IMG/VR virus record: IMGVR_UViG_3300010334_000053
DNA length: 64,000 nucleotides
DNA from: an uncultured virus (IMG/VR IMGVR_UViG_3300010334_000053)
Lineage: Duplodnaviria > Heunggongvirae > Uroviricota > Caudoviricetes
Strand: one strand, 5' to 3'
The translations under genes and the position numbers were made by a program. A model generated the notes under the pieces. The model worked only from the letters and a program-made list of their open reading frames with translations, did not search any database and was not told the DNA's origin. Within the stretch, counting starts at the first letter, position 1. Each line of letters begins with the position of its first letter. This document shows positions 52,516-62,054 of this stretch, piece after piece.

Positions 52516-52861
52516 AAAAATAAATTTCTTTACAGTATTCTGCACCTAAAATCATGGTGCCACGATAATCACTGCCTTTTACCATTACGTCTGGATCAAA
52601 TGCACGAATATTAGCAACGAGTTCATCGTCACTGTCAAAAGTATTTACATAGTCAACATACCTTAGTGCCAATAACATGATTTTACGTTCTTCGGCAGTA
52701 TTGATTGGTCTGCTCGGACCCTTGAGTTCGCTGACTCTTCTATCTGAATCAATTAAAACCAATACTCCTGAATTGGGATATGCAGTTTTTGCATGTCGGA
52801 GCAATTCAAGATGTCCGACATGCAAAATATCAAAGGTACCGTTTACTACAACTCTAGTCAT
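52457..52861 (-). CDS. HldE/RfaE domain II-like nucleotidyltransferase
   Basis: NGTFDILHVGH, KGPSRPIN, KGSDY, STT. Confidence 0.85.
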   Translation of the reverse strand: MTRVVVNGTFDILHVGHLELLRHAKTAYPNSGVLVLIDSDRRVSELKGPSRPINTAEERKIMLLALRYVDYVNTFDSDDELVANIRAFDPDVMVKGSDYRGTMILGAEYCKEIYFYERLEHFSTTKKIQDITSR

Positions 52862-53351
52862 TGCCTAGTACTAGGCCCTTAAGGATATCTAAGGTTTCTA
52901 ACAGATCGCCTGTGTGCAAGATGCCATTGCCGTCAACTTCTCCCCATTCAATGATATTGCTAGGCTTGTCATCAATTAAGATGTCGCCGGGTTTGCAATG
53001 CACTTTCTTGTCTTTAGCAAACGGTCCAAAATGGACAGGAATATCTGGAAAATATTTCTGAGCCCAAAGCACCTTGTCGTAAAATGCCCAATGAACATCG
53101 TTACCTTTAGGCACAGCAGTTAAGAACAGCAGTTCGTAGTTGCGAGTGTCTCTAAGATAGCGACAGTATTCAACCAACGCATCCGCTTCCTTGGTCTTCT
53201 CTAACAGAAAGTAGATGCGCGGATCACGGATAATGCTGGACCAAACTTCATTTGGCCATCGGCCATTGGGCGCTGGCTGTCCAAGAACCTTGCTGGCATA
53301 GCCGTCAAAGTCGGCAACTACGCCGTCCATGTCCAGAAAAATAGTAGTCAT
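52854..53351 (-). CDS. HAD 5'(3')-deoxyribonucleotidase
   Basis: FLDMDGVVADF, ILIDD. Confidence 0.8.
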   Translation of the reverse strand: MTTIFLDMDGVVADFDGYASKVLGQPAPNGRWPNEVWSSIIRDPRIYFLLEKTKEADALVEYCRYLRDTRNYELLFLTAVPKGNDVHWAFYDKVLWAQKYFPDIPVHFGPFAKDKKVHCKPGDILIDDKPSNIIEWGEVDGNGILHTGDLLETLDILKGLVLGND

Positions 53352-53353
53352 TT

Positions 53354-53863
53354 TTAATTACCTTCTAAAACTTCTATATCTGCAAAAGAATTCACTACCG
53401 TGATTTCACGAAATCCCTCGTCATGCGTAGGAAACTGAAACGATGCAAACATGGACTGAATAACATTTTCCGGAATAGTCTTACCCGGCCGAGAGATCAA
53501 ACGACGATTCCATTCCAAACGATCTTCAGGAACATCAAACACTACGGCATTGAAAGTGTATCCGTACTTTGTAAGAAAATCAATAAACTTGCGACGGCTT
53601 TTGCGGCTCATGTTAGTACGATCAATGATAATTGGATCACCGTCTTCGGCGGTCATCTTAAGATCATTCCACATGACTTTGTCAGCAAATCCAACAAGTT
53701 CTTTGAACCCTTCGTCATAGGTCATGCCATATTCATGAGCGATATCCTCAATGACGGTGTCAGTAGATGCAATGTAGGTATTTTCAATCCACTGCAAGTT
53801 GTCAACCCAGGTGCTTTTGCCCGAGCAAGGAGCGCCGACGAGAATAGTACAAATCTTAGTCAT
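53354..53863 (-). CDS. P-loop kinase (AAA_33, polynucleotide-kinase-like)
   Basis: GAPCSGKST, STD, IDRTN, P...EGF. Confidence 0.8.
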   Translation of the reverse strand: MTKICTILVGAPCSGKSTWVDNLQWIENTYIASTDTVIEDIAHEYGMTYDEGFKELVGFADKVMWNDLKMTAEDGDPIIIDRTNMSRKSRRKFIDFLTKYGYTFNAVVFDVPEDRLEWNRRLISRPGKTIPENVIQSMFASFQFPTHDEGFREITVVNSFADIEVLEGN

Positions 53864-53926
53864 CTTACTTCCTTTTTGTTGGTTGTTAGTGTATTATACA
53901 CACTTTCTATTGAGAATACAAATAGT

Positions 53927-54082
53927 TTATTGAGACTCGTCTATTGCCTTCATGAGAATTTTTAGAGCAGTTTCCCTGCGCTGCATTGCAAACTCATAAG
54001 TGGGTCCCCAACTGAAATCTTGTTCGTCAGGAACACACTCACTCAATGAGTCATAAACTTGTTGAAGTTCTTCAATCGTCAT
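53927..54082 (-). CDS. small hypothetical protein
   Basis: Manual 51 aa MTIEELQQ... Confidence 0.45.
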   Translation of the reverse strand: MTIEELQQVYDSLSECVPDEQDFSWGPTYEFAMQRRETALKILMKAIDESQ

Positions 54083-54380
54083 ATCCGTCACCCCATTCTT
54101 CTCGCAGTTGTTGACGAATTCTTTGTTCTCGTAGTTGTTCTTCTTCGGCCCACTTGCGCTGCATCATGTCTTTGTAGACTTTGTTGGCACCGCCTCCCCA
54201 ATAGTCACACTCTAATCCACAATCAGGGCAGTATTCACGAGACAGTGTTTCTTTGAATCTGCTGCTTTTGCATTTGGGACACTTGCGATTGGTAATCTTC
54301 TTACCGTTATCGACCCAGCCGTTACGTTCGTTGTAATAATTAGCCAACAGGACCACCCATTGATTCAACGCCGTCTGCAC
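54072..54380 (-). CDS. Zn-ribbon hypothetical protein
   Basis: CPKC...CPDC; start uncertain. Confidence 0.55.
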   Translation of the reverse strand: MQTALNQWVVLLANYYNERNGWVDNGKKITNRKCPKCKSSRFKETLSREYCPDCGLECDYWGGGANKVYKDMMQRKWAEEEQLREQRIRQQLREEWGDGYDD

Positions 54381-54628
54381 GGCCTGCTTCCCATGCTGCT
54401 TTTGCTACTTGTGAGTAGCTGTCATTTTCTAAATCAGGCTTACTGCCATATTCTTGTTCAAACCATTCTTCAAAAGTCATTGCTTATCCTTGAAAAGTTG
54501 CTTGCGAAGCCAGTCGTAATGCTCCTGTTGTTGAGCATGGAGTTTCATCCACTTATGAAAAGTGAAGCGCCAAAATACATCAAATAAAACAGCACCGCAG
54601 GCAAATCCTGCAACGAAACTCCATGTCA

Positions 54629-55519
54629 TTACATAGTCTCCAACGATTCACGAACCCAAGCAAGTCGGGCTTGCTCGTCCATTTCAGTGTACTCAACGAT
54701 ATTAGCGCGGATCTTGTCGATCAGCGGATAATACTCTTCGTCAATTTGCTGCTTGATCTGATCACTCATCAGCTTGTCAGTACGCGGATTGCGAGCAACC
54801 CACTTGCTGGTCAAGTAATACGGCGACTTGATCTTAGCAGCAATACCGTCTTCAGTGTAGAACACAAACCCTTCGTGCTTGACGTTCTTCACAGCCTTGA
54901 GAAGTTCACCTACCGTAGTACGCACACCCAGAACAGGCAGGCAACCAAACTGAATACCAAACACAGCAAGAGCATGTGAATCCAACCTCACCGGGCTATC
55001 CCATTCCTTCAAACGGTAGCCGATCAAGTACATGCCTTCTTCTTCAGGAACAATATGCGGATCATTGCGATGCACACATTCAAACATGAAAGTTAGGCGA
55101 GGATTTGCACGGCAAATTTCACGATACACATCCACGTCAATAAGCTCACGAGCCATTGCACAGAAGTCGCTGTCCAGGCTACCGGTAGTGCTCACAAGGA
55201 TATCTCCATTGTGCCAGGTAACCGAAACCATGAAGCCGTTGATCTTGCGATAAGCGTCAACAACAGTGTCGTCGCTTAACTTAGGAGCCTTCTTTTCGAC
55301 ACCGTAGTTGTAGACCTTGGTAAAGGGACGAGAAACAATGTTGAAGTCCTGGTCGATCACAGTGCCGCGGCATTCCTCAAGGAAGCGATTCCACAGATCG
55401 TCGTAAAATACGCGCTTGGTGTACTTGAGCACAAACAAACCTGGATATGCTTCACTTTCACGCATTTTAACCAGCTTGGGATTCTTTTCAACCCAATTCT
55501 TAAGTTCGATCTTGTTCAT
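54629..55519 (-). CDS. RNA ligase (Rnl1-like)
   Basis: ECRG, RPFTK, motif I RKING, MFE, EGFV, KIKS. Confidence 0.8.
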   Translation of the reverse strand: MNKIELKNWVEKNPKLVKMRESEAYPGLFVLKYTKRVFYDDLWNRFLEECRGTVIDQDFNIVSRPFTKVYNYGVEKKAPKLSDDTVVDAYRKINGFMVSVTWHNGDILVSTTGSLDSDFCAMARELIDVDVYREICRANPRLTFMFECVHRNDPHIVPEEEGMYLIGYRLKEWDSPVRLDSHALAVFGIQFGCLPVLGVRTTVGELLKAVKNVKHEGFVFYTEDGIAAKIKSPYYLTSKWVARNPRTDKLMSDQIKQQIDEEYYPLIDKIRANIVEYTEMDEQARLAWVRESLETM

Positions 55520-55624
55520 GTCTGTGTCCTTGTGTGTTTAACTTACACACAAAGTATATAAGTTTTATTAGGTGAAGTCAATTGTTCTTGGGGAAAATAA
55601 TGTGACAGGGCAGATTTTTCTGCA

Positions 55625-55692
55625 TAAATAAGAGTGTGAGCCACGATGCTACCAACATCCGCTCACTCTAATGCTATATAGGAGCAATCAGC
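55625..55692 (+). promoter_or_regulatory. structured leader of homing endonuclease gene (copy A)
   Basis: TAAATA, nested hairpin, TCTAA, SD-occluding hairpin; covaries with 57585-57654. Confidence 0.6.
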
Positions 55693-56613
55693 ATGAATAT
55701 TTATACACCAATTACAATCACAGAGGAAATTAGAAAACGATTTAAACCAACTAGACTTGCCATTAAGGAACTTAATGGAGTAAAATATTTTTGCAAATCA
55801 GTTAGAAAAGATATTGAAAAATACACCGGAAGTGGAGTCAGATGGACTAACCATGTTAAAAAGCATGGAAGGGAACATATCAGAACGTTGTGGATAAGTG
55901 AGTGGTTTTACTGTCCTGAACGTTTGCAGTTTTTTGCTCTTGAATTCAGTAAACAACACAATATAGTCGAGAGCAGTGAATGGGCAAATCTTATACCAGA
56001 AAATGGATTAACTGGTAACACCGGTTCTAAAAAAGGCCACATGGCAGGGATTCCAAAACCAAAAAGCAATATGCATCGCGATTCAATTAGCAAAACTCTC
56101 ACGGGAATTACGTTAGAATACCGACACGGCAAAGAAAAAGCTGATGAGATTAGATCAAAAATGTCTTTAGCCAAGATTGGAAACAAAAAATCGAAAGAAA
56201 CTATCGAAAAAACAAGACAGACTCATTTAGGAAGTAAACGTGGCAAAGAAACTAAACAAAGAATGAAAGAAGCGCAGACAAGACGAGTACCACTAGTATG
56301 TGAACACTGTGGTAAATCTGTCTTGCCCGGCAACTTTCATAGATGGCACGGTGATTGTTGTTTATCCAATCCCAAACATTTGAAAAGAAAAGTTAATACT
56401 ACTAACTCGTGTAAAAATCGATCAAAAAAAGTAGTAATAAACGAAAAAGTGTACGCCTCGTTAAAAGAAGCATACACTTTGTTAAACTTGCCCAGAAATT
56501 TACTAGGAAATATGCTAAAGAAAAATATTACCAGTAATTCTAAATGGGGAATTGTTTCTTTTGAAATTATCAATGATGAGACATTGGATCAACAAGTTTC
56601 ATCTTCTGAATAA
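55693..56613 (+). CDS. GIY-YIG-related homing endonuclease with NUMOD-like repeats
   Basis: KYFCK..KYTGSG, basic S.ET..K repeats, CEHCG..RWHGD; inverted relative to neighbours. Confidence 0.7.
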   Translation: MNIYTPITITEEIRKRFKPTRLAIKELNGVKYFCKSVRKDIEKYTGSGVRWTNHVKKHGREHIRTLWISEWFYCPERLQFFALEFSKQHNIVESSEWANLIPENGLTGNTGSKKGHMAGIPKPKSNMHRDSISKTLTGITLEYRHGKEKADEIRSKMSLAKIGNKKSKETIEKTRQTHLGSKRGKETKQRMKEAQTRRVPLVCEHCGKSVLPGNFHRWHGDCCLSNPKHLKRKVNTTNSCKNRSKKVVINEKVYASLKEAYTLLNLPRNLLGNMLKKNITSNSKWGIVSFEIINDETLDQQVSSSE

Positions 56614-57106
56614 CTTCATCTAACTCAACTACAATTTTTCCAGTTGCATCATATCCTACATCCATAATCCTTCCTGGAATACCAGTGGGCTGACCATGAC
56701 GGTGACCATGTAACATAATGCTACCATGCCCTGCTCGATTATGATCAAATACTGGATAGTGGAACATCACTACAAAAGTCTTGTTATAAGTCATTTCATA
56801 ATAAACATGAACTTCTTTAAAGCAACGACGGAACACAGGATCCTTGAGCAACTTCCGATCGTGATTGCCTTCAATCAGGATCTTATCACCATTCAGCTGA
56901 TTCAAGATTGCCACGGCTTTGTTCGAAGGCAGAAAGGCAAAATCACCTAGAATATAGACAGTGTCATCTGGATTAACCTTAGCATTCCACTCGGAAATCA
57001 TACTCTGATTCATATCTTCAACGTCCGCGAACTTGCGAGTCTCAGGACAGAACTTCATAATATTCGCGTGTCCAAAATGGAGATCACTTGATACCCAGGT
57101 CTTCAT
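56570..57106 (-). CDS. calcineurin-like metallophosphoesterase
   Basis: SDLHFGH, LGD, GNHD, HYP, HGHRH. Confidence 0.9.
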   Translation of the reverse strand: MKTWVSSDLHFGHANIMKFCPETRKFADVEDMNQSMISEWNAKVNPDDTVYILGDFAFLPSNKAVAILNQLNGDKILIEGNHDRKLLKDPVFRRCFKEVHVYYEMTYNKTFVVMFHYPVFDHNRAGHGSIMLHGHRHGQPTGIPGRIMDVGYDATGKIVVELDEVIQKMKLVDPMSHH

Positions 57107-57208
57107 TATCTAATTCCTTAATCTACAATCTTGCAGTAGCGAACCTGAAAGCCGAATGCATCCTTACGCATCTTGCCAAACTTTGATTCGTGCCACACAT
57201 AATCTTCG

Positions 57209-57493
57209 TTAATTTCTACGATAGTCACTAGACCCGCTGTCATAGCTAGATCCATTATCGTAGGAGGAAGTATCAGTGCTCATAATGCTGCTAATAACTT
57301 CTGCTGCAATGATTGTATCAATGATTGTATCGACAATATCTGGACCGGAATCATAATTTGAGTTAGACTCTACGTGAGCAACATATATGCTGCGAGTGGT
57401 AGTTGTTTTAACAGCAGTGCCACCTGTAGGAGGCATAGTAGGCGCTGCGGACAACTTCTTGTATTCCTTGTTACGCTTAAAAAATGAAAACAT
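57209..57493 (-). CDS. hypothetical protein, Ser/Asp-rich tail
   Basis: SD AAAGGA; promoter TTGACT-17-TATACT at 57521-57549. Confidence 0.55.
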   Translation of the reverse strand: MFSFFKRNKEYKKLSAAPTMPPTGGTAVKTTTTRSIYVAHVESNSNYDSGPDIVDTIIDTIIAAEVISSIMSTDTSSYDNGSSYDSGSSDYRRN

Positions 57494-57558
57494 AAATGTT
57501 CCTTTGTTGTTTACTCATATAGTATACAAAACTTATTACATGGAGTCAAGACAAAAAA

Positions 57559-57586
57559 TAGCTCTGGCAAATTAATGCCAGAGCTA
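57559..57586 (-). terminator. intrinsic terminator
   Basis: 11-bp stem TAGCTCTGGCA/TGCCAGAGCTA followed by T-run on minus strand. Confidence 0.6.
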
Positions 57587-57654
57587 AATAATGGTGCGAA
57601 TCGCGACAGTGGGGATTGTCCATTCGCTCTAACAGTTTAGAAGGAACTATCAGT
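57585..57654 (+). promoter_or_regulatory. structured leader of homing endonuclease gene (copy B)
   Basis: Same architecture as 55625-55692. Confidence 0.6.
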
Positions 57655-58281
57655 ATGAATATTTATTACGTCTATGCTTATCTCCGTAAGAAAGATCTCA
57701 CACCATATTATATCGGTAAAGGTAAAGATAATCGTGCTTATCGCAAACATAATGTACCTGTACCAAGGGATAGGTCTATGATTGTTTTTCTAGAAACAGG
57801 ATTAACCAATATTGGTGCCTGCGCATTAGAACGACGCTATATCAGGTGGTATGGACGAAAAGATTTAGGTACAGGAATATTGCGAAATAGAACTGATGGC
57901 GGCGACGGTATACCGGGAATCTTGCACACAGTTGAACGAAATCAAAAAATTAGTAAAAAACTAAAAGGTAAATTTGTATCAGAAACTACTAGAAAAAGAC
58001 TTAGTGATTCTCATATAGGAAAACAAACAGGATCTAATAATGGAATGTTTGGTAAAACTCATTCTGAAAAAGTAAAGAATGATCATAGATTGCGTATGAT
58101 AGGTAATAAAAATAGTCTAGGAAATAAGCATACCGAAGAAGCTAGATTAAAGCAATCACTACGTGCTAAGAATAGGGAAATTAAAATATGTCCCCACTGT
58201 GGATTTGGATGTACTGGATCAAATTATACAAGATGGCATGGGGATAATTGTAAAAAATTAGGTCAAAAAAATATTGGGTAG
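57655..58281 (+). CDS. GIY-YIG homing endonuclease with NUMOD3 repeats
   Basis: YYVYAY..PYYIGKG..RA, NRTDGG, GKTHSE, KHTEE, CPHCG..RWHGDNC; start after AAGGA. Confidence 0.8.
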
Positions 58282-58303
58282 ACGCTAATCTACCCAATAT
58301 TTT
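58268..58303. terminator. bidirectional terminator
   Basis: 15-bp inverted repeat between convergent genes. Confidence 0.7.
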
Positions 58304-58313
58304 AAGTTATGTA

Positions 58314-59738
58314 TTAGATGTCGTATCGTGGATCCATGATAGTTGACATCATAATTCCCACCGGCGTAAATTTATCCATTTCTGCTGACAGTATGGACTT
58401 CATAATAGCCGGAGAAAATCCGCTCACAAGTGCCGCACCGCTCTTGTCTGCCTTCACAGGAACATTATCTGAACTGTTAAGATTCCAAAATACTATTGCA
58501 GGAACCTGATATCCCGCTTCTGCGTACTTGCGTTCAATCATTTCCATAGCAGAATCATCATTTCTGATGCACTGATTGAACTGCATATCACTGAGCACCA
58601 AAAGGATCTCAGGCATTTCACTCTGAGGTACACCGTTCTTGACTGCAACATCAAGAATCTTGTTGAATGCAGCGTGTAGGTTAGTACTCATGCCCCATTC
58701 GCTCTTGACCATCTGTGCAGCCTTTTCAACAACATTGCCCTTGAGAGTAACTAGCTGAGGACTGGAACTGAAAGTAAGGAAAGTGTCCTTGAACTTGCCA
58801 GTGTTCTTGTCCGCAAGATAGAGACCCAGTGAAACTGCAACGTCAAGGCAAGTAACCTCACTCTTAGAAGAGCTACCACCTGCACGACAAGTCATAGAAC
58901 CCGAAACGTCAACCAGTGGAAGGATGTTTGCATCCCCAACGTAGTTAGGAAGCGCATTCCACTGTGCCACAACATGGTCAAGTTCAGTCTTACCAAGTGC
59001 TACGCGACTGTAAGGATTGATTACACCCTTGAGAACGTCATACGGATACACTGCGCCAGCGTTGACCTTTACAGTAGGATCACCCTTTACCAGCTTGGCA
59101 ACATACTCGGCAAACTTTGGAGTATTGCGAGTAAAAGCCTTCTTGTAGCGCGAAGCTGCAAGACTAGGAACATGGTTAAAGTTGATGTTATCCCAATCCT
59201 TAGAACACATCTGAGTTTCAACAACCCGGGTCAGGTTAACCAGCGTCTTACGATACTGCTTAGGGCTCATACCAAGTGCAGATCGAAGTTCTGCTGCCAC
59301 TGCGCCCTTGCGAGGCATCCACTTGGCGCAAAGACCATTGCCACTGGCAAGTGCATCTGCGATCAGTGCGTATGCTTCGGTCTTGAGATCGATGGTTTCA
59401 AAGACGAGTAGATCGTCCCATCGACCAATTTCTGGTACCTTTGCAAGAAGTGCCTTTGCTGCATCGGTGTCAGTCTTTTCCAGCTGAACAAGGATGTCAC
59501 GGAAAATCTTACGTTCGCCTGCACCGCCACGAGCGTCACGCGCCCACTGTGCAACGCGCAGTGCAATTTCTCGATTTTCCACGAATGCGCCAGTGAAGGC
59601 AGGCACGATGTCCTTGCCACGCGATCCGCCAACGGCAAAGAAAAGGTCGACGTTCTTGGACGCTGACGACTTAAGAGCCTTCATACCATTTGCAGTCCTT
59701 GCAGATTGATTTGCAACCGCTTCAATAAAAGTAGACAT
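58314..59738 (-). CDS. Ro60/TROVE-like vWA protein (DUF2828-type)
   Basis: TANG, RDARGGAGER, GRWDDL, AKWMPR, MIDAS DVSGSM, SDMQF, FWNL, SGFSP. Confidence 0.8.
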   Translation of the reverse strand: MSTFIEAVANQSARTANGMKALKSSASKNVDLFFAVGGSRGKDIVPAFTGAFVENREIALRVAQWARDARGGAGERKIFRDILVQLEKTDTDAAKALLAKVPEIGRWDDLLVFETIDLKTEAYALIADALASGNGLCAKWMPRKGAVAAELRSALGMSPKQYRKTLVNLTRVVETQMCSKDWDNINFNHVPSLAASRYKKAFTRNTPKFAEYVAKLVKGDPTVKVNAGAVYPYDVLKGVINPYSRVALGKTELDHVVAQWNALPNYVGDANILPLVDVSGSMTCRAGGSSSKSEVTCLDVAVSLGLYLADKNTGKFKDTFLTFSSSPQLVTLKGNVVEKAAQMVKSEWGMSTNLHAAFNKILDVAVKNGVPQSEMPEILLVLSDMQFNQCIRNDDSAMEMIERKYAEAGYQVPAIVFWNLNSSDNVPVKADKSGAALVSGFSPAIMKSILSAEMDKFTPVGIMMSTIMDPRYDI

Positions 59739-59751
59739 AGTTATTTCCCTT

Positions 59752-59785
59752 CAGTTTAGGTTAAAAAATTGCTGTTACTAAACTT
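59752..59785 (-). ncRNA. CAGCAA stem element in 5' UTR of TROVE-like gene
   Basis: AGTTTAG-TAA-CAGCAA-TTTTTTAAC-CTAAACT abutting the SD. Confidence 0.55.
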
Positions 59786-59798
59786 TATTTGTTCTCAC

Positions 59799-59827
59799 AT
59801 TATATACAAAAATTATTTTTGTGTCAA
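59799..59827 (-). promoter_or_regulatory. sigma70-like promoter of TROVE-like gene
   Basis: Perfect TTGACA-17-TATAAT. Confidence 0.75.
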
Positions 59828-60556
59828 TCGTTTTTTTGCTATTTTAGAAGTTATTCCGACATAGTCCCAATTTTCTTTAGGTCCTGTTTGTGACCAAAAT
59901 ACGGTTTTTGGCACTCTTATACAATTTCCTTGCCTATCAACAACGGATACTGTTTCTTTTATTTCCAGCCAATTGTGGGTACCTTTTGCTACCCTATCTG
60001 ATGCTACAGAGGTGCCATCTGCACGTTTTAATAAATTATGAGTGCCATTTTTAACACGCTTATTATTAAGATCAGTTGAGTGCTGTGAACCTTTTTCGCC
60101 TTGAAAATTATGTCTTCCTTCTTTAACTAACTTGGCAGTTCGTTCTTTTGCAAATTTTGAACCTGTTTCTCCCTGCCACGGGTGTGTTCCGTTTTCGACC
60201 ATTTTTCTTGCTTTAATTGAAGAAGCAATTTTCATATTTTTAGTATTGTGTTTCTTGTGGCCTTTGTCACTTCCTCCATCAATACCGTTTTCTATTTTAA
60301 AATTTGCCCATTCCTTTGATTCAACAATATTATTATTTTTTGAAAACGTTGATGCAGCTTTTATGCATTCATTTTTGTCTTCAAAGAATCCAATAATTTC
60401 GGTTTCAAATAATTTACCATGTTTTCGTAAATGTGCCAGCCAATATTCACCAGATCCAGTATATTTGTATGGATCAGAACTAATAGTTTTTCCAAAATAC
60501 TTTAAGCCAGTTATTGTGTGGGTTTTAACATAAAGATATGTAGGTTTAAAAGACAT
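59813..60556 (-). CDS. GIY-YIG-related homing endonuclease with GTH(N/P) repeats
   Basis: YLYVK.H..TGLKYFGKT..YTGSG; four GTH/GRH repeats. Confidence 0.75.
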   Translation of the reverse strand: MSFKPTYLYVKTHTITGLKYFGKTISSDPYKYTGSGEYWLAHLRKHGKLFETEIIGFFEDKNECIKAASTFSKNNNIVESKEWANFKIENGIDGGSDKGHKKHNTKNMKIASSIKARKMVENGTHPWQGETGSKFAKERTAKLVKEGRHNFQGEKGSQHSTDLNNKRVKNGTHNLLKRADGTSVASDRVAKGTHNWLEIKETVSVVDRQGNCIRVPKTVFWSQTGPKENWDYVGITSKIAKKRLTQK

Positions 60557-60606
60557 AAAAACTCCTTTTTAAGTATTTATGTCTAGTACGCGCTTCTTGA
60601 TTAAAA

Positions 60607-60713
60607 CAGGATGTTGTGACATTAAAAGACCGGGAGTCGAACCCATTGTCACTGTCCCCACTGGACTGGCCCGCTAGTTTTGGCAGCGAATAATGATTGC
60701 GGTAATCATCCTA
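60607..60713 (-). ncRNA. Y-RNA-like/tRNA-mimic element 1
   Basis: TAGGATG/CATCCTG closing stem, CCGCAA, D-like GTCC-AGTGG-GGAC, T arm GGG-TTCGACT-CCC. Confidence 0.6.
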
Positions 60714-60732
60714 AAATATGATTTGAATTAAA

Positions 60733-60797
60733 CAGGATGCCTTTTTTGCTTTTTTGATTACAAGTCAAGTGCATAAAGGTTTGCTGAAAGCATCCTA
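60733..60797 (-). ncRNA. Y-RNA-like/anticodon-mimic element 2
   Basis: TAGGATGC/GCATCCTG stem, CAGCAA, TTGA-CTTGTAA-TCAA loop. Confidence 0.6.
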
Positions 60798-60807
60798 AAA
60801 CTTAATT

Positions 60808-60993
60808 TTAGATTGTTTGTTCGTGTTGTTCTATTAATCTATCTATCCAAAAAATCCACCAAGCCTGTTGCAATGCTTTATATAACTCTATTGCAGCAGG
60901 ATCTTTTTGAATATGTACTAAATCAGATTCGGTCGGGTGTGTTTCTCTATACCAAGAAGCAAACGTAGTCGAATCATGTTGTCTTTTTTTCAT
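60808..60993 (-). CDS. hypothetical protein
   Basis: ATGA overlap with pth2. Confidence 0.5.
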   Translation of the reverse strand: MKKRQHDSTTFASWYRETHPTESDLVHIQKDPAAIELYKALQQAWWIFWIDRLIEQHEQTI

Positions 60994-61388
60994 GTAAACG
61001 TCTTTAACGCTTTGATATCGTCACCAATATTTTCTTCTGCAATTGGACCAAGTCCTAAACAGGTCGTGGTCGGCTCGTCGAACACAGTAAATGCAGCATC
61101 AGTTACAAGACTAGTACCACAGATATCCTTGTACTTGTCTTGCAGCACACGTAGTTCTTCTACAGTGTCTACAATCAGCGTGATCTTATAAGCCCGATCG
61201 CCATTCTGGTACTTTTCTGCATCACTAGGTCCGTCACTGGCAAATCCATGTTCACCAGGAAATCTTTTTACAGAATCCCAAAAACTGTGAAGGTAGGCGT
61301 GTCCTGCCTGAGTACACATCTTACCACGAATGCCGTTCATTTTCTTTACCGATTCAAGGGCAAAGATACAGTACATTTTAACTTTCAT
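60990..61388 (-). CDS. peptidyl-tRNA hydrolase, Pth2 family
   Basis: GKMCTQAGHA, KITL, VTDAAFTVF, TTTCLGLGP; start reassigned to MKVK. Confidence 0.85.
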   Translation of the reverse strand: MKVKMYCIFALESVKKMNGIRGKMCTQAGHAYLHSFWDSVKRFPGEHGFASDGPSDAEKYQNGDRAYKITLIVDTVEELRVLQDKYKDICGTSLVTDAAFTVFDEPTTTCLGLGPIAEENIGDDIKALKTFT

Positions 61389-61406
61389 ATCTCTACCTTT
61401 CAAAAT

Positions 61407-61484
61407 TGGAGCGCCGGGCGTGATTCGAACACGCGGTGTTACTGCTTTGCAGGCAGTTGCATTGGGCCTCTCTGCCACCGACGC
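61407..61484 (-). tRNA. tRNA-Cys(GCA)
   Basis: ACTGC-CTGCAAA-GCAGT; TTCGAAT; U73-CCA. Confidence 0.9.
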
Positions 61485-61497
61485 ATTATTTAAATTC

Positions 61498-61585
61498 TGG
61501 CGGAGCGTGTGGGAATCGAACCCACTCTACCCATTTAGGTAGTACAGATTAGCAGTCTGCTGCATTACCGGCCTGCCCACGCTCC
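61498..61585 (-). tRNA. tRNA-Ser(GCT)
   Basis: GCAGA-CTGCTAA-TCTGT, long variable arm, G73-CCA. Confidence 0.92.
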
Positions 61586-61600
61586 GTATTTGTTGTTGCA

Positions 61601-61629
61601 ATTATAGTACTATTTATTAGCAGTGTCAA
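61601..61629 (-). promoter_or_regulatory. sigma70-like promoter for tRNA-pth2-ncRNA unit
   Basis: TTGACA-17-TATAAT. Confidence 0.7.
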
Positions 61630-61637
61630 CGCTAAAT

Positions 61638-62054
61638 TTACAATCCTGCCTTTTTTACTAACTCTTTATATCCAGCCCAGCTAGGATGAATATGATCAGG
61701 TTGTACACGCTTAGTTGCAATAATCTGATCGCCATGTTCGTGTGCTAGTTTCTCAACAATTGCATTTACATTTTCTTTACAAAACTTTTCATTGCACGGC
61801 GGCATAATCCATACAACACGACTTGAGTGGACACGATTTCGCATCTTACGAAGTTCTGCTTCAGTATGAATGAACTGATGATCATTAGTGCCAAGACTAA
61901 TGACAACTAGCTTAGAATCAAGAGCAGTATTGCCCCATTTCTTGTTCCACTGCCACGTGTTATATCCACCTTTAGCATATGAAACACATTGCTTAGGTGC
62001 AAACATTTCAGTACCAACGGCGATACTATCGCCGATAATTAAACATTCCAACAT
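61638..62054 (-). CDS. SGNH/GDSL hydrolase
   Basis: IGDSI, LGTND, DHIHP. Confidence 0.8.
   Translation of the reverse strand: MLECLIIGDSIAVGTEMFAPKQCVSYAKGGYNTWQWNKKWGNTALDSKLVVISLGTNDHQFIHTEAELRKMRNRVHSSRVVWIMPPCNEKFCKENVNAIVEKLAHEHGDQIIATKRVQPDHIHPSWAGYKELVKKAGL

Follow-up and report, generated by a model that had tools for sequence, protein, structure and literature searches.

A widespread leader cassette of homing-endonuclease-like genes in large freshwater phages has its conserved fold on the strand opposite the gene

The locus and its features

The stretch of DNA considered here, which we refer to as the window, comprises 64,000 nucleotides (nt) from an uncultured member of the Caudoviricetes (IMG/VR record IMGVR_UViG_3300010334_000053) and is part of a large T4-like phage. 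An earlier note, made from the sequence alone, drew attention to two nuclease genes within it, here called endonucleases A and B, that are headed by similar structured leaders. These two leaders are true copies of a widespread cassette of about 80 bases that heads many unrelated nuclease genes in uncultured freshwater giant phages, and its conserved fold lies on the strand opposite the gene. The features of the two copies are listed below, where SD denotes the Shine–Dalgarno sequence and the antisense RNAs and the promoter function of the boxes are predictions.

Copy A
55625..55630, plus strand: sense box TAAATA of late-promoter type, from sequence; predicted mRNA start near 55636
55636..55666, minus strand: bulged hairpin of 6 bp, bulged G, 1 bp, bulged G, 4 bp and a 7-nt loop UUGGUAG, from covariation and the antisense fold; predicted to be the 3' hairpin of an antisense RNA and to be followed by a U-rich tail
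55668..55691, minus strand: 5' hairpin of the predicted antisense RNA, the complement of the SD region; its closing G·U pairs are A·C on the mRNA
55625..55692, minus strand: predicted antisense RNA A of ~68 nt, its 5' end placed 5 nt past the reverse box and its 3' end in the U-rich tail
55698..55703, minus strand: reverse box TAAATA of late-promoter type, within endonuclease codons 2-4
55693..56613, plus strand: endonuclease A (predicted), 306 aa, a degenerate Seg-like protein of GIY-YIG type with a C-terminal CxxC finger (PHROG 314, homing endonuclease, E 8e-10)

Copy B
57559..57586, minus strand: host intrinsic terminator, also present in an empty allele; the insertion of cassette B begins at its edge
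57585..57590, plus strand: sense box TAAATA of late-promoter type, from sequence; the left insertion junction lies inside it, after 57586 (by comparison with locus L253)
57596..57627, minus strand: bulged hairpin of the predicted antisense RNA, from the model match and the antisense fold
57629..57653, minus strand: predicted antisense RNA, 5' hairpin of 9 bp (G·U pairs counted) that lies over the SD region; minus-strand z -2.65
57585..57654, minus strand: predicted antisense RNA B of ~70 nt
57660..57665, minus strand: reverse box TAAATA of late-promoter type, within endonuclease codons 2-4
57655..58281, plus strand: endonuclease B, 208 aa, predicted GIY-YIG type (YVYAY..YYIGKG) with NUMOD3 and a C-terminal CxxC finger

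All of the parts that the earlier note had listed were found again in both copies. On the sense strand copy A reads GTGAGC (55636-41), CAC, GATG (55645-48), the loop CTACCAA, CATC (55656-59), C and GCTCAC (55661-66), and then TCTAA (55667-71), TGCT/AGCA, ATCAGC and the ATG at 55693. Copy B reads GCGAAT (57596-601), CGC, GACA (57605-08), the loop GTGGGGAT, TGTC, C and ATTCGC (57622-27), followed by TCTAA (57628-32), AGTT/AACT, ATCAGT and the ATG at 57655. A structural model built from 95 family members (R1) matches just these two sites in the window, at 55633-55692 with 71.5 bits and at 57593-57654 with 58.9 bits, the next-best match scoring 10.6 bits. Folding of the single copies on the plus strand is only modest, with z of about -1 to -1.5.

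Extent and distribution of the family

The family was collected with two sequence patterns, one for the 3' half of the element, which matched 122 viral stretches (~560 estimated), and one for the 5' half, which matched 128 (~2,400 estimated). Combined, they yield 201 distinct elements, 198 of them with a downstream YCAGY. The upstream bulged hairpin, which the 3'-half pattern does not include, is nonetheless present in 101 of 102 distinct matches to it (100 loci and the two window copies). Selection by protein gives the same linkage from the other side, with the element directly upstream in 77 of 80 relatives of nuclease B, a share that is biased upward since most of these relatives were found through an N-terminal peptide that overlaps the reverse box. 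Copy number varies widely, the five large records searched holding 13, 8, 3, 2 and 0 copies.

No cultured phage with the element was found. A blastn search of cultured phages with one typical copy returned only three chance matches of 28 nt, and of 120 pattern matches in bacterial genomes 100 were scored by the model and two were real; both lie in metagenome-assembled genomes and are probably stray phage contigs. The Rfam search that the earlier note had proposed gave no match over the elements in window 54000-62000 at E<=5 or for 20 loci at E<=1 (Rfam 15). Two lake metatranscriptomes, represented by contigs only, include pieces over genes next to the elements and over the 3' portion of nuclease A, and none over either element; as strand and transcript ends are not resolvable from contigs, this weighs neither way.

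Two truncated elements, at loci L143 and L250, retain the promoter box and the bulged hairpin and have lost the SD hairpin and the nuclease start.

The strand that carries the fold

The helices were proposed in the earlier note to show compensatory changes, and this part of the claim stands: 10 of 11 pairs in the bulged hairpin and five of eight in the 5' hairpin (the latter in a model-fitted alignment of 59) change on both sides. The fold, however, belongs to the opposite strand. When 95 aligned copies are read antisense, 99.5% of the alignment cells pair, cells with changes on both sides number 326 in the bulged hairpin against 91 after shuffling, and RNAalifold recovers the same 16 pairs from the antisense alignment.

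Watson-Crick covariation is blind to strand and wobble pairs are not. Among 126 distinct stems, leaving out the loop-closing pair, the non-canonical pairs on the mRNA strand are 64 A·C and no G·U, which places the conserved structure on the antisense strand. At the loop-closing pair itself the mRNA strand shows G·U in 12 and A·C in 7 of the 201 elements. The bias recurs in a protein-selected set of 57 leaders, with 12 A·C against no G·U on the mRNA strand, and in all 57 both bulges are C on the sense strand even though they were unscored in the selection. Variation in the 5' hairpin is likewise limited to pairs that the antisense strand allows (U·G 58, U-A 26 and C-G 10 of 95). Folding energy was rejected as a test of strand, being confounded by composition.

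Read antisense, the architecture consists of a 5' hairpin over the ribosome site, followed by a second hairpin from which two Gs bulge and by a U-rich tail, and several motifs take on a different meaning. What had been described as a CRC/C internal loop is a bulge, one pair and a second bulge, the R pairing with an opposite Y (antisense G-C 66, G·U 16, A-U 13). The conserved TCTAA and ATCAG together make up the arms of the other antisense hairpin, whose closing pairs are C-G, U-A, G·U and A-U or G·U; on the mRNA these arms are mismatched, which leaves about four pairs around the SD. The last hairpin was previously thought to bury the SD, but on the mRNA the SD lies mostly in the loop of this short hairpin and is predicted to be unpaired with probabilities of 0.55-0.96 in copy A and 0.33-0.96 in copy B. 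Predicted SD accessibility is mixed across 12 copies in the complete genome G002.

These observations bear directly on the idea of an mRNA leader, in which the last hairpin would sequester the SD as in I-TevI and the upstream hairpin would serve as a 5' stabiliser or a protein site. With 94-99% of their pairs Watson-Crick the helices are able to form on both strands, and the SD does overlap a hairpin with changes on both sides. The wobble bias on the mRNA strand and the mostly open SD of both window copies speak against such a leader, as do a promoter geometry unlike that of I-TevI, the lack of any covariation between loop and ribosome-binding site in 177 pairs, and a reverse box that it leaves unexplained, and we consider it very unlikely.

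The U-rich tail of the antisense RNA would be encoded by the spacer behind the sense box, where the A content over 3 nt is 72%, compared with 32% at 70 other gene-proximal boxes. This tail is enriched and begins 2 nt after the stem; a terminator scan makes no call there, and extra host terminators past the element were found in 8 of 127 cases.

Convergent boxes and the shared protein start

The sequence NATAAATA is the late promoter of T4-type phages (PMC2984593). A sense TAAATA stands upstream of the whole element in 190 of the 198 elements, with a spacing to the first helix of 5 nt in 151. On the far side, a reverse box (TATTTA or TACTTA on the gene strand, that is TAAATA or TAAGTA) lies 4-7 nt past the element in 185 of 198, and at exactly 5 nt in 152. 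Its spacing is independent of the position of the ATG, which occurs at three different offsets. The reverse box accompanies 110 of 129 element-linked starts of open reading frames (ORFs) as opposed to 22 of 1,168 other ORF starts. The same holds within the single complete genome G002, where 11 of 19 nuclease-like ORFs bear the element (nine flagged by script and two that coincide with model matches): all 11 have the reverse box, which is absent from the eight element-free ones and present at two of 388 other ORFs.

Both proteins start MNIY and carry CxHCG..RWHGD, as the earlier note had said. The reverse box, which it had overlooked, explains the first of these features, the shared MNIY start being the shadow of a promoter box within codons 2-4. 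Of the M-x-[I/T]-Y starts, 164 of 164 have T as the last base of codon 2, a constraint at the level of DNA.

A different role for the reverse box is conceivable in an insulator, where the minus-strand hairpin and U-tract would terminate or process read-through from the host and the reverse box would re-supply transcription to displaced downstream genes. Orientation lends this some weight. Endonucleases A and B both lie on the plus strand between minus-strand genes, so the inversion described in the earlier note is real here, but it is no requirement of the family: among 121 nucleases 69 are inverted relative to their neighbours, 24 co-oriented and 15 mixed, with one side unknown in 13. In G002 eight of the 11 element-bearing nucleases are inverted and six of the eight element-free ones co-oriented. 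The U-tract of the family also speaks for an insulator, and promoters embedded in T4 seg and mob genes have been described (PMC2988022). Against an insulator, the reverse box is kept about as often with a co-oriented upstream neighbour (36 of 39) as with a divergent one (80 of 88), and the fold bias also remains beside co-oriented neighbours (14 A·C, no G·U). Both window neighbours carry TTGACT-17-TATACT promoters of their own, copy B already adjoins a host terminator, and a promoter with a terminator 60 nt further on serves no downstream gene; we regard this explanation as quite unlikely.

In one variant, with a first helix of GTCCTT/AAGGAC type (loci L252, L253, L308, L039, L079, L101 and L112), the element abuts the -35 box of a divergent gene and has no adjacent sense TAAATA. 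In L252, L253 and L308 the box is found some 35-40 nt further up, and the reverse box is kept where visible.

The genes downstream of the element

Nucleases A and B are homing-endonuclease-like (PHROG 314 and 655, NUMOD3; a family-level annotation) and can be aligned with each other over the C-terminal zinc-finger region only, at 31% over 78 aa. The relatives of nuclease A amount to one near-identical record and three weak C-terminal matches, and nothing else. Across the family the downstream ORFs belong to unrelated families, including GIY-YIG, HNH and others: 119 scanned ORFs gave HNH_3 in 14, HNH in 10, GIY-YIG-type domains in nine and DUF7487 in one, and the remainder have NUMOD3 only, weak unrelated matches or none, many of them with GIY-YIG-like N-termini by eye. 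The C-terminal zinc finger is found in 34 of 121 complete ORFs, so that it is no family trait, and it was rejected on this count as the partner of the RNA.

This diversity has to be set against the possibility that the antisense RNA serves a separate function, as a protein-binding decoy, as a scaffold or guide for the nuclease (TnpB- or IscB-like, with a flank-derived 3' end) or as a catalytic RNA, in which the bulged Gs would be a recognition site. The invariance of the unscored bulges fits such a role, as does one RNA being common to unrelated nucleases with a 3' end that abuts the insertion junction. No protein domain is shared among the 119 ORFs, however, and the zinc finger is confined to a minority; there are few conserved unpaired bases and no Rfam match to a ribozyme or guide RNA. 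Nucleases of at least 60% identity share their flank in nine of nine pairs, as in site-faithful homing. An independent function thus appears improbable, much as the mRNA leader does.

Other candidate kinds of RNA were considered and set aside. OMEGA/HEARO systems consist of one family of RNA-binding nuclease (IscB/TnpB) that is retargeted to unrelated sites, whereas here unrelated GIY-YIG and HNH families are involved and the nine close pairs all share a flank. Likeness to HDV-like, hammerhead, twister and Y RNAs was dismissed by eye, against consensus structures, as the order of helices and the conserved cores do not fit.

Mobility

Comparison with endonuclease-free alleles, as the earlier note had suggested, shows the leader to be part of the insertion, for it is absent from the empty alleles at L252 and L253. 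Locus L252, whose phosphoesterase is 90% identical, is without both nucleases and both elements, and at two further sites it carries elements that go with other nucleases; nuclease B is missing from L253. Relative to L253 the copy B insertion starts after window position 57586, a point that lies within the TAAATA box and at the host terminator's edge. No copy of the element is left at the empty site and there is no second copy at the 3' end of either gene. Such presence and absence between homologous flanking genes of related phages is a feature of homing cassettes, and site-specific cleavage and homing by the element-bearing nucleases are predicted.

Pairs of nucleases below 30% identity share a flank in 42 of 6,771 cases; set beside the nine of nine close pairs, this makes the spread look site-faithful. 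Seven pairs of loci share both flanks yet have nucleases less than 30% identical, some of them with near-identical leaders, which suggests that ORFs have been exchanged behind the cassette.

Exchange of this kind is also what a single-stranded DNA hairpin might do, with the bottom strand and its extrahelical Gs acting in the manner of attC in the capture or exchange of nuclease cassettes. Tolerance of G·T on one strand fits DNA as well as RNA, and the seven both-flank pairs and the copy B junction at the cassette edge are in keeping with it. The promoter-like boxes at start-site distance on both ends, the U-tract and the YUNR motif of the loops are features of RNA, and the lack of a copy at the empty site or 3' of either gene also argues against a DNA hairpin; no search for a linked recombinase was made. 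We hold this to be highly improbable. An integron attC site in the strict sense was rejected: such sites have invariant AAC/GTT core sites, lie 3' of the ORF and are linked to an integrase, whereas here the base after CTCTAA is C in 66 of 101 cases and T in 34, and the element lies 5' of the ORF (no search for an integrase was made).

The inference of the earlier note, a cis-regulatory RNA or mobile-element end that travels with endonucleases, therefore survives in part. The element is a conserved, structured cis-element that is linked to nuclease genes (77/80) and is part of the insertion; a role mainly as an mRNA leader acting like the I-TevI hairpin is not supported, and the end of a DNA mobile element is less likely.

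A proposed antisense mechanism

The loops are mostly 6-7 nt and belong to a reused set in which loops occur in both orientations (CGCCAA/UUGGCG). YUNR is found at the 5' end of the loop on one strand in 37 of 74 distinct loops, against 9.1 expected by shuffling, the other half of the loops being without it, and 18 of the 74 are also present as their reverse complement, against 0.8 expected. Loops are not self-complementary. CGCCAA, which is the most frequent loop on the antisense strand, also forms the kissing loop of pSA564 RNA1, where the hairpin has a second role as terminator (PMC8129170), and YUNR is general in loop-loop antisense systems (PMC4485353, PMC10798244).

We consider it probable, on balance, that the element is a portable cis-antisense module which, like RNA-OUT, art200 or CopA, limits translation of the endonuclease. 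It would be a control cassette for the free-standing homing endonuclease genes of large T4-like freshwater phages, in which two convergent TAAATA boxes flank an element of ~58 nt. The forward box would give the nuclease mRNA, and the reverse box, in the first codons, would give an antisense RNA of ~70 nt over the entire 5' leader including the SD. This RNA would have two stable hairpins and probably end in the U-rich tail, and the corresponding helices of the mRNA would be loosened by A·C mismatches so that the SD is usable until the antisense RNA binds. Binding probably begins by kissing at the 6-7-nt loop and would extend through the two bulges to block the ribosome, and divergent loops would keep the many copies of one genome largely independent. 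From the arrangement of motifs we infer that the boxes may be active as promoters and that the antisense RNA may exist, terminate, kiss its target and repress it; for TAAATA as an active promoter in the window this can be put forward only tentatively.

Several points weigh against this reading. TAAATA lies upstream of 14 of the 85 window ORFs compared with three for the opposite strand, but 14 is also attained by other AT-rich permutations, and both boxes would be late-class promoters, which clouds the timing of control. Folding energy is lower on the antisense strand in 177 of 198 elements but still in 147 of 198 after shuffling, so that the difference is largely compositional. Runs of three G/C are not enriched in the loops (22 vs 20.7 of 74), part of the UU signal in the loops may come from the U·G closing pair, and reverse-complement loops can arise neutrally by micro-inversion of the hairpin. 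Plain antisense pairing does not need the degree of conservation seen in the two bulged Gs and in the CU/AG pairs, all of them invariant, and the bulged Gs are explained by no reading considered here. Finally, the family counts do not allow for relatedness among copies.

A further reading goes beyond control in cis. The alleles of loop and upper stem would act as incompatibility groups, reused kissing loops being shuffled among loci and nuclease families so that each antisense RNA silences matching nuclease mRNAs in trans; a resident phage would thereby mute the homing nucleases of an invader in co-infection, and the bulged Gs would be bound by a dedicated phage or host protein. It draws on the 13 copies with nearly all-different loops in one genome (in G002 an upper stem and loop are common to only two of 12 parsed copies), on identical loops with unrelated proteins, set beside different loops on proteins 86% identical, and on predicted duplexes, some non-cognate ones of which reach -60 kcal/mol against -83 for cognate ones. 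This speculation we think unlikely.

Comparison with known systems

Homing endonucleases are a toxic cargo, which T4-like phages are known to control through the choice of promoter, through hairpins in the mRNA and through protein autorepression. If the antisense mechanism is true, it would add a further route of control, a compact antisense module that hundreds of unrelated nuclease genes reuse, and the mobile genes of phages would have converged on the design of plasmids and insertion sequences. The hidden promoter would account for an oddity at the protein level, the shared M-x-I-Y starts, and the family would form a natural library of short, probably orthogonal antisense/target pairs.

Three features of antisense control are present in the family: an opposite-strand promoter placed to read across the SD (seen only as a motif in the sequence), a conserved antisense-strand structure, and a loop of 5-8 nt with YUNR on one partner. 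The loop pair of copy A is, we take it, one of the loop pairs of ColE1 RNA I/RNA II. The element would work like known antisense systems and yet is homologous to none of them. Among the closest are RNA-OUT/RNA-IN of IS10 and art200/tnpA of IS200, in which a cis-antisense RNA covers the 5' untranslated region and SD of the element's own enzyme, art200 being 90 nt long and needing loop complementarity (PMC4513863). The likeness lies in a mobile element's own small structured cis-antisense RNA over the SD and in loop-initiated pairing, which is here predicted from sequence; by contrast, the enzymes here are homing endonucleases from several unrelated families, the boxes are of the phage late type and the module is swapped between genes. 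CopA/CopT and pSA564 RNA1, antisense RNAs of plasmid replication, resemble the element in architecture: they too have a pair of hairpins, bulges beneath the upper stem and a loop of 6-7 nt that contains CGCCAA or YUNR, in variants that might set specificity groups, and their 3' hairpin also serves as a terminator, as that of the element may do (PMC10798244, PMC8129170, PMC4485353). Their target is a Rep protein and not a phage nuclease, and there is no sequence homology, as judged by the lack of an Rfam match.

Among phage systems, the hairpins at the ribosome sites of T4 I-TevI, I-TevII, I-TevIII and segB and of Aeh1 mobE also combine a late promoter with a hairpin at a homing endonuclease gene (PMC2988022). 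In the I-TevI type it is the mRNA that folds, and the hairpin is lacking from late transcripts (PMC2988022), whereas here the box precedes the whole element (190 of 198) and the fold is on the other strand; a stable mRNA hairpin that sequesters the SD and a late promoter that spares late transcripts, the two features that define that type, are both missing. The antisense RNA CfrI of cyanophage S-PM2 lies opposite a homing endonuclease gene of a T4-like phage (PMC2984593); it is ~225 nt long and tied to psbA, in contrast to the short portable cassette on many nucleases described here. PMC12619734 concerns another lineage and protein-based control.

The element may be the unnamed candidate DNAVirus_1557 of Fremin 2023, a comparison made by description only: 58 nt, 59 sequences, all freshwater, eight of them upstream of GIY-YIG genes, and drawn from IMG/VR (PMC10690425). 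A literature search found no description of the element, within a coverage that did not extend to the supplement of Weinberg 2017 (PMC5737381) or to the alignments of Fremin 2023, both of which bear on novelty.

Genomic setting and further observations

In the window 77 of 85 ORFs lie on the minus strand, and there are six tRNAs. Element-bearing related records reach 259-364 kb. A gp55-like late sigma factor is encoded in four of five records searched, and the nearest record, G001 (23% complete), gave neither an element nor a gp55 match. The gp55-like matches of L489 and L490 lie inside open frames of ~300-324 aa, well over the 185 aa of T4 gp55.

Both copies are found in a cluster of genes for an RNA ligase, a phosphoesterase, a DUF2828 protein and a PTH2 protein. 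More fully, window 52854-61585 holds RNA ligase, kinase-like, HAD-like, phosphoesterase, DUF2828 and PTH2 genes together with tRNAs, a cluster that recurs in related phages and is suggestive of RNA repair; nucleases frequently land in it. A third endonuclease of GIY-YIG type (59813-60556, minus strand), to which the N-terminus of endonuclease A is related, has the same orientation as its neighbours and a TAAATA box but neither element nor reverse box; it is missing from L253, and in L252 an inverted element-bearing nuclease stands in its place.

Non-coding DNA at 60603-60805 (minus strand) is 97.5% identical in L253, where its counterpart lies directly upstream of the DUF2828 gene. It consists of two tandem units closed by AGGATG...CATCCTG, the second with tRNA-like arms, and was called by neither ARAGORN nor Rfam; it presumably resembles the paired Y-RNA-like RNAs beside Ro60/TROVE genes. 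Elsewhere, at L002:2264-2635, a tmRNA gene (permuted/betaproteobacterial models) lies beside an element-bearing nuclease.

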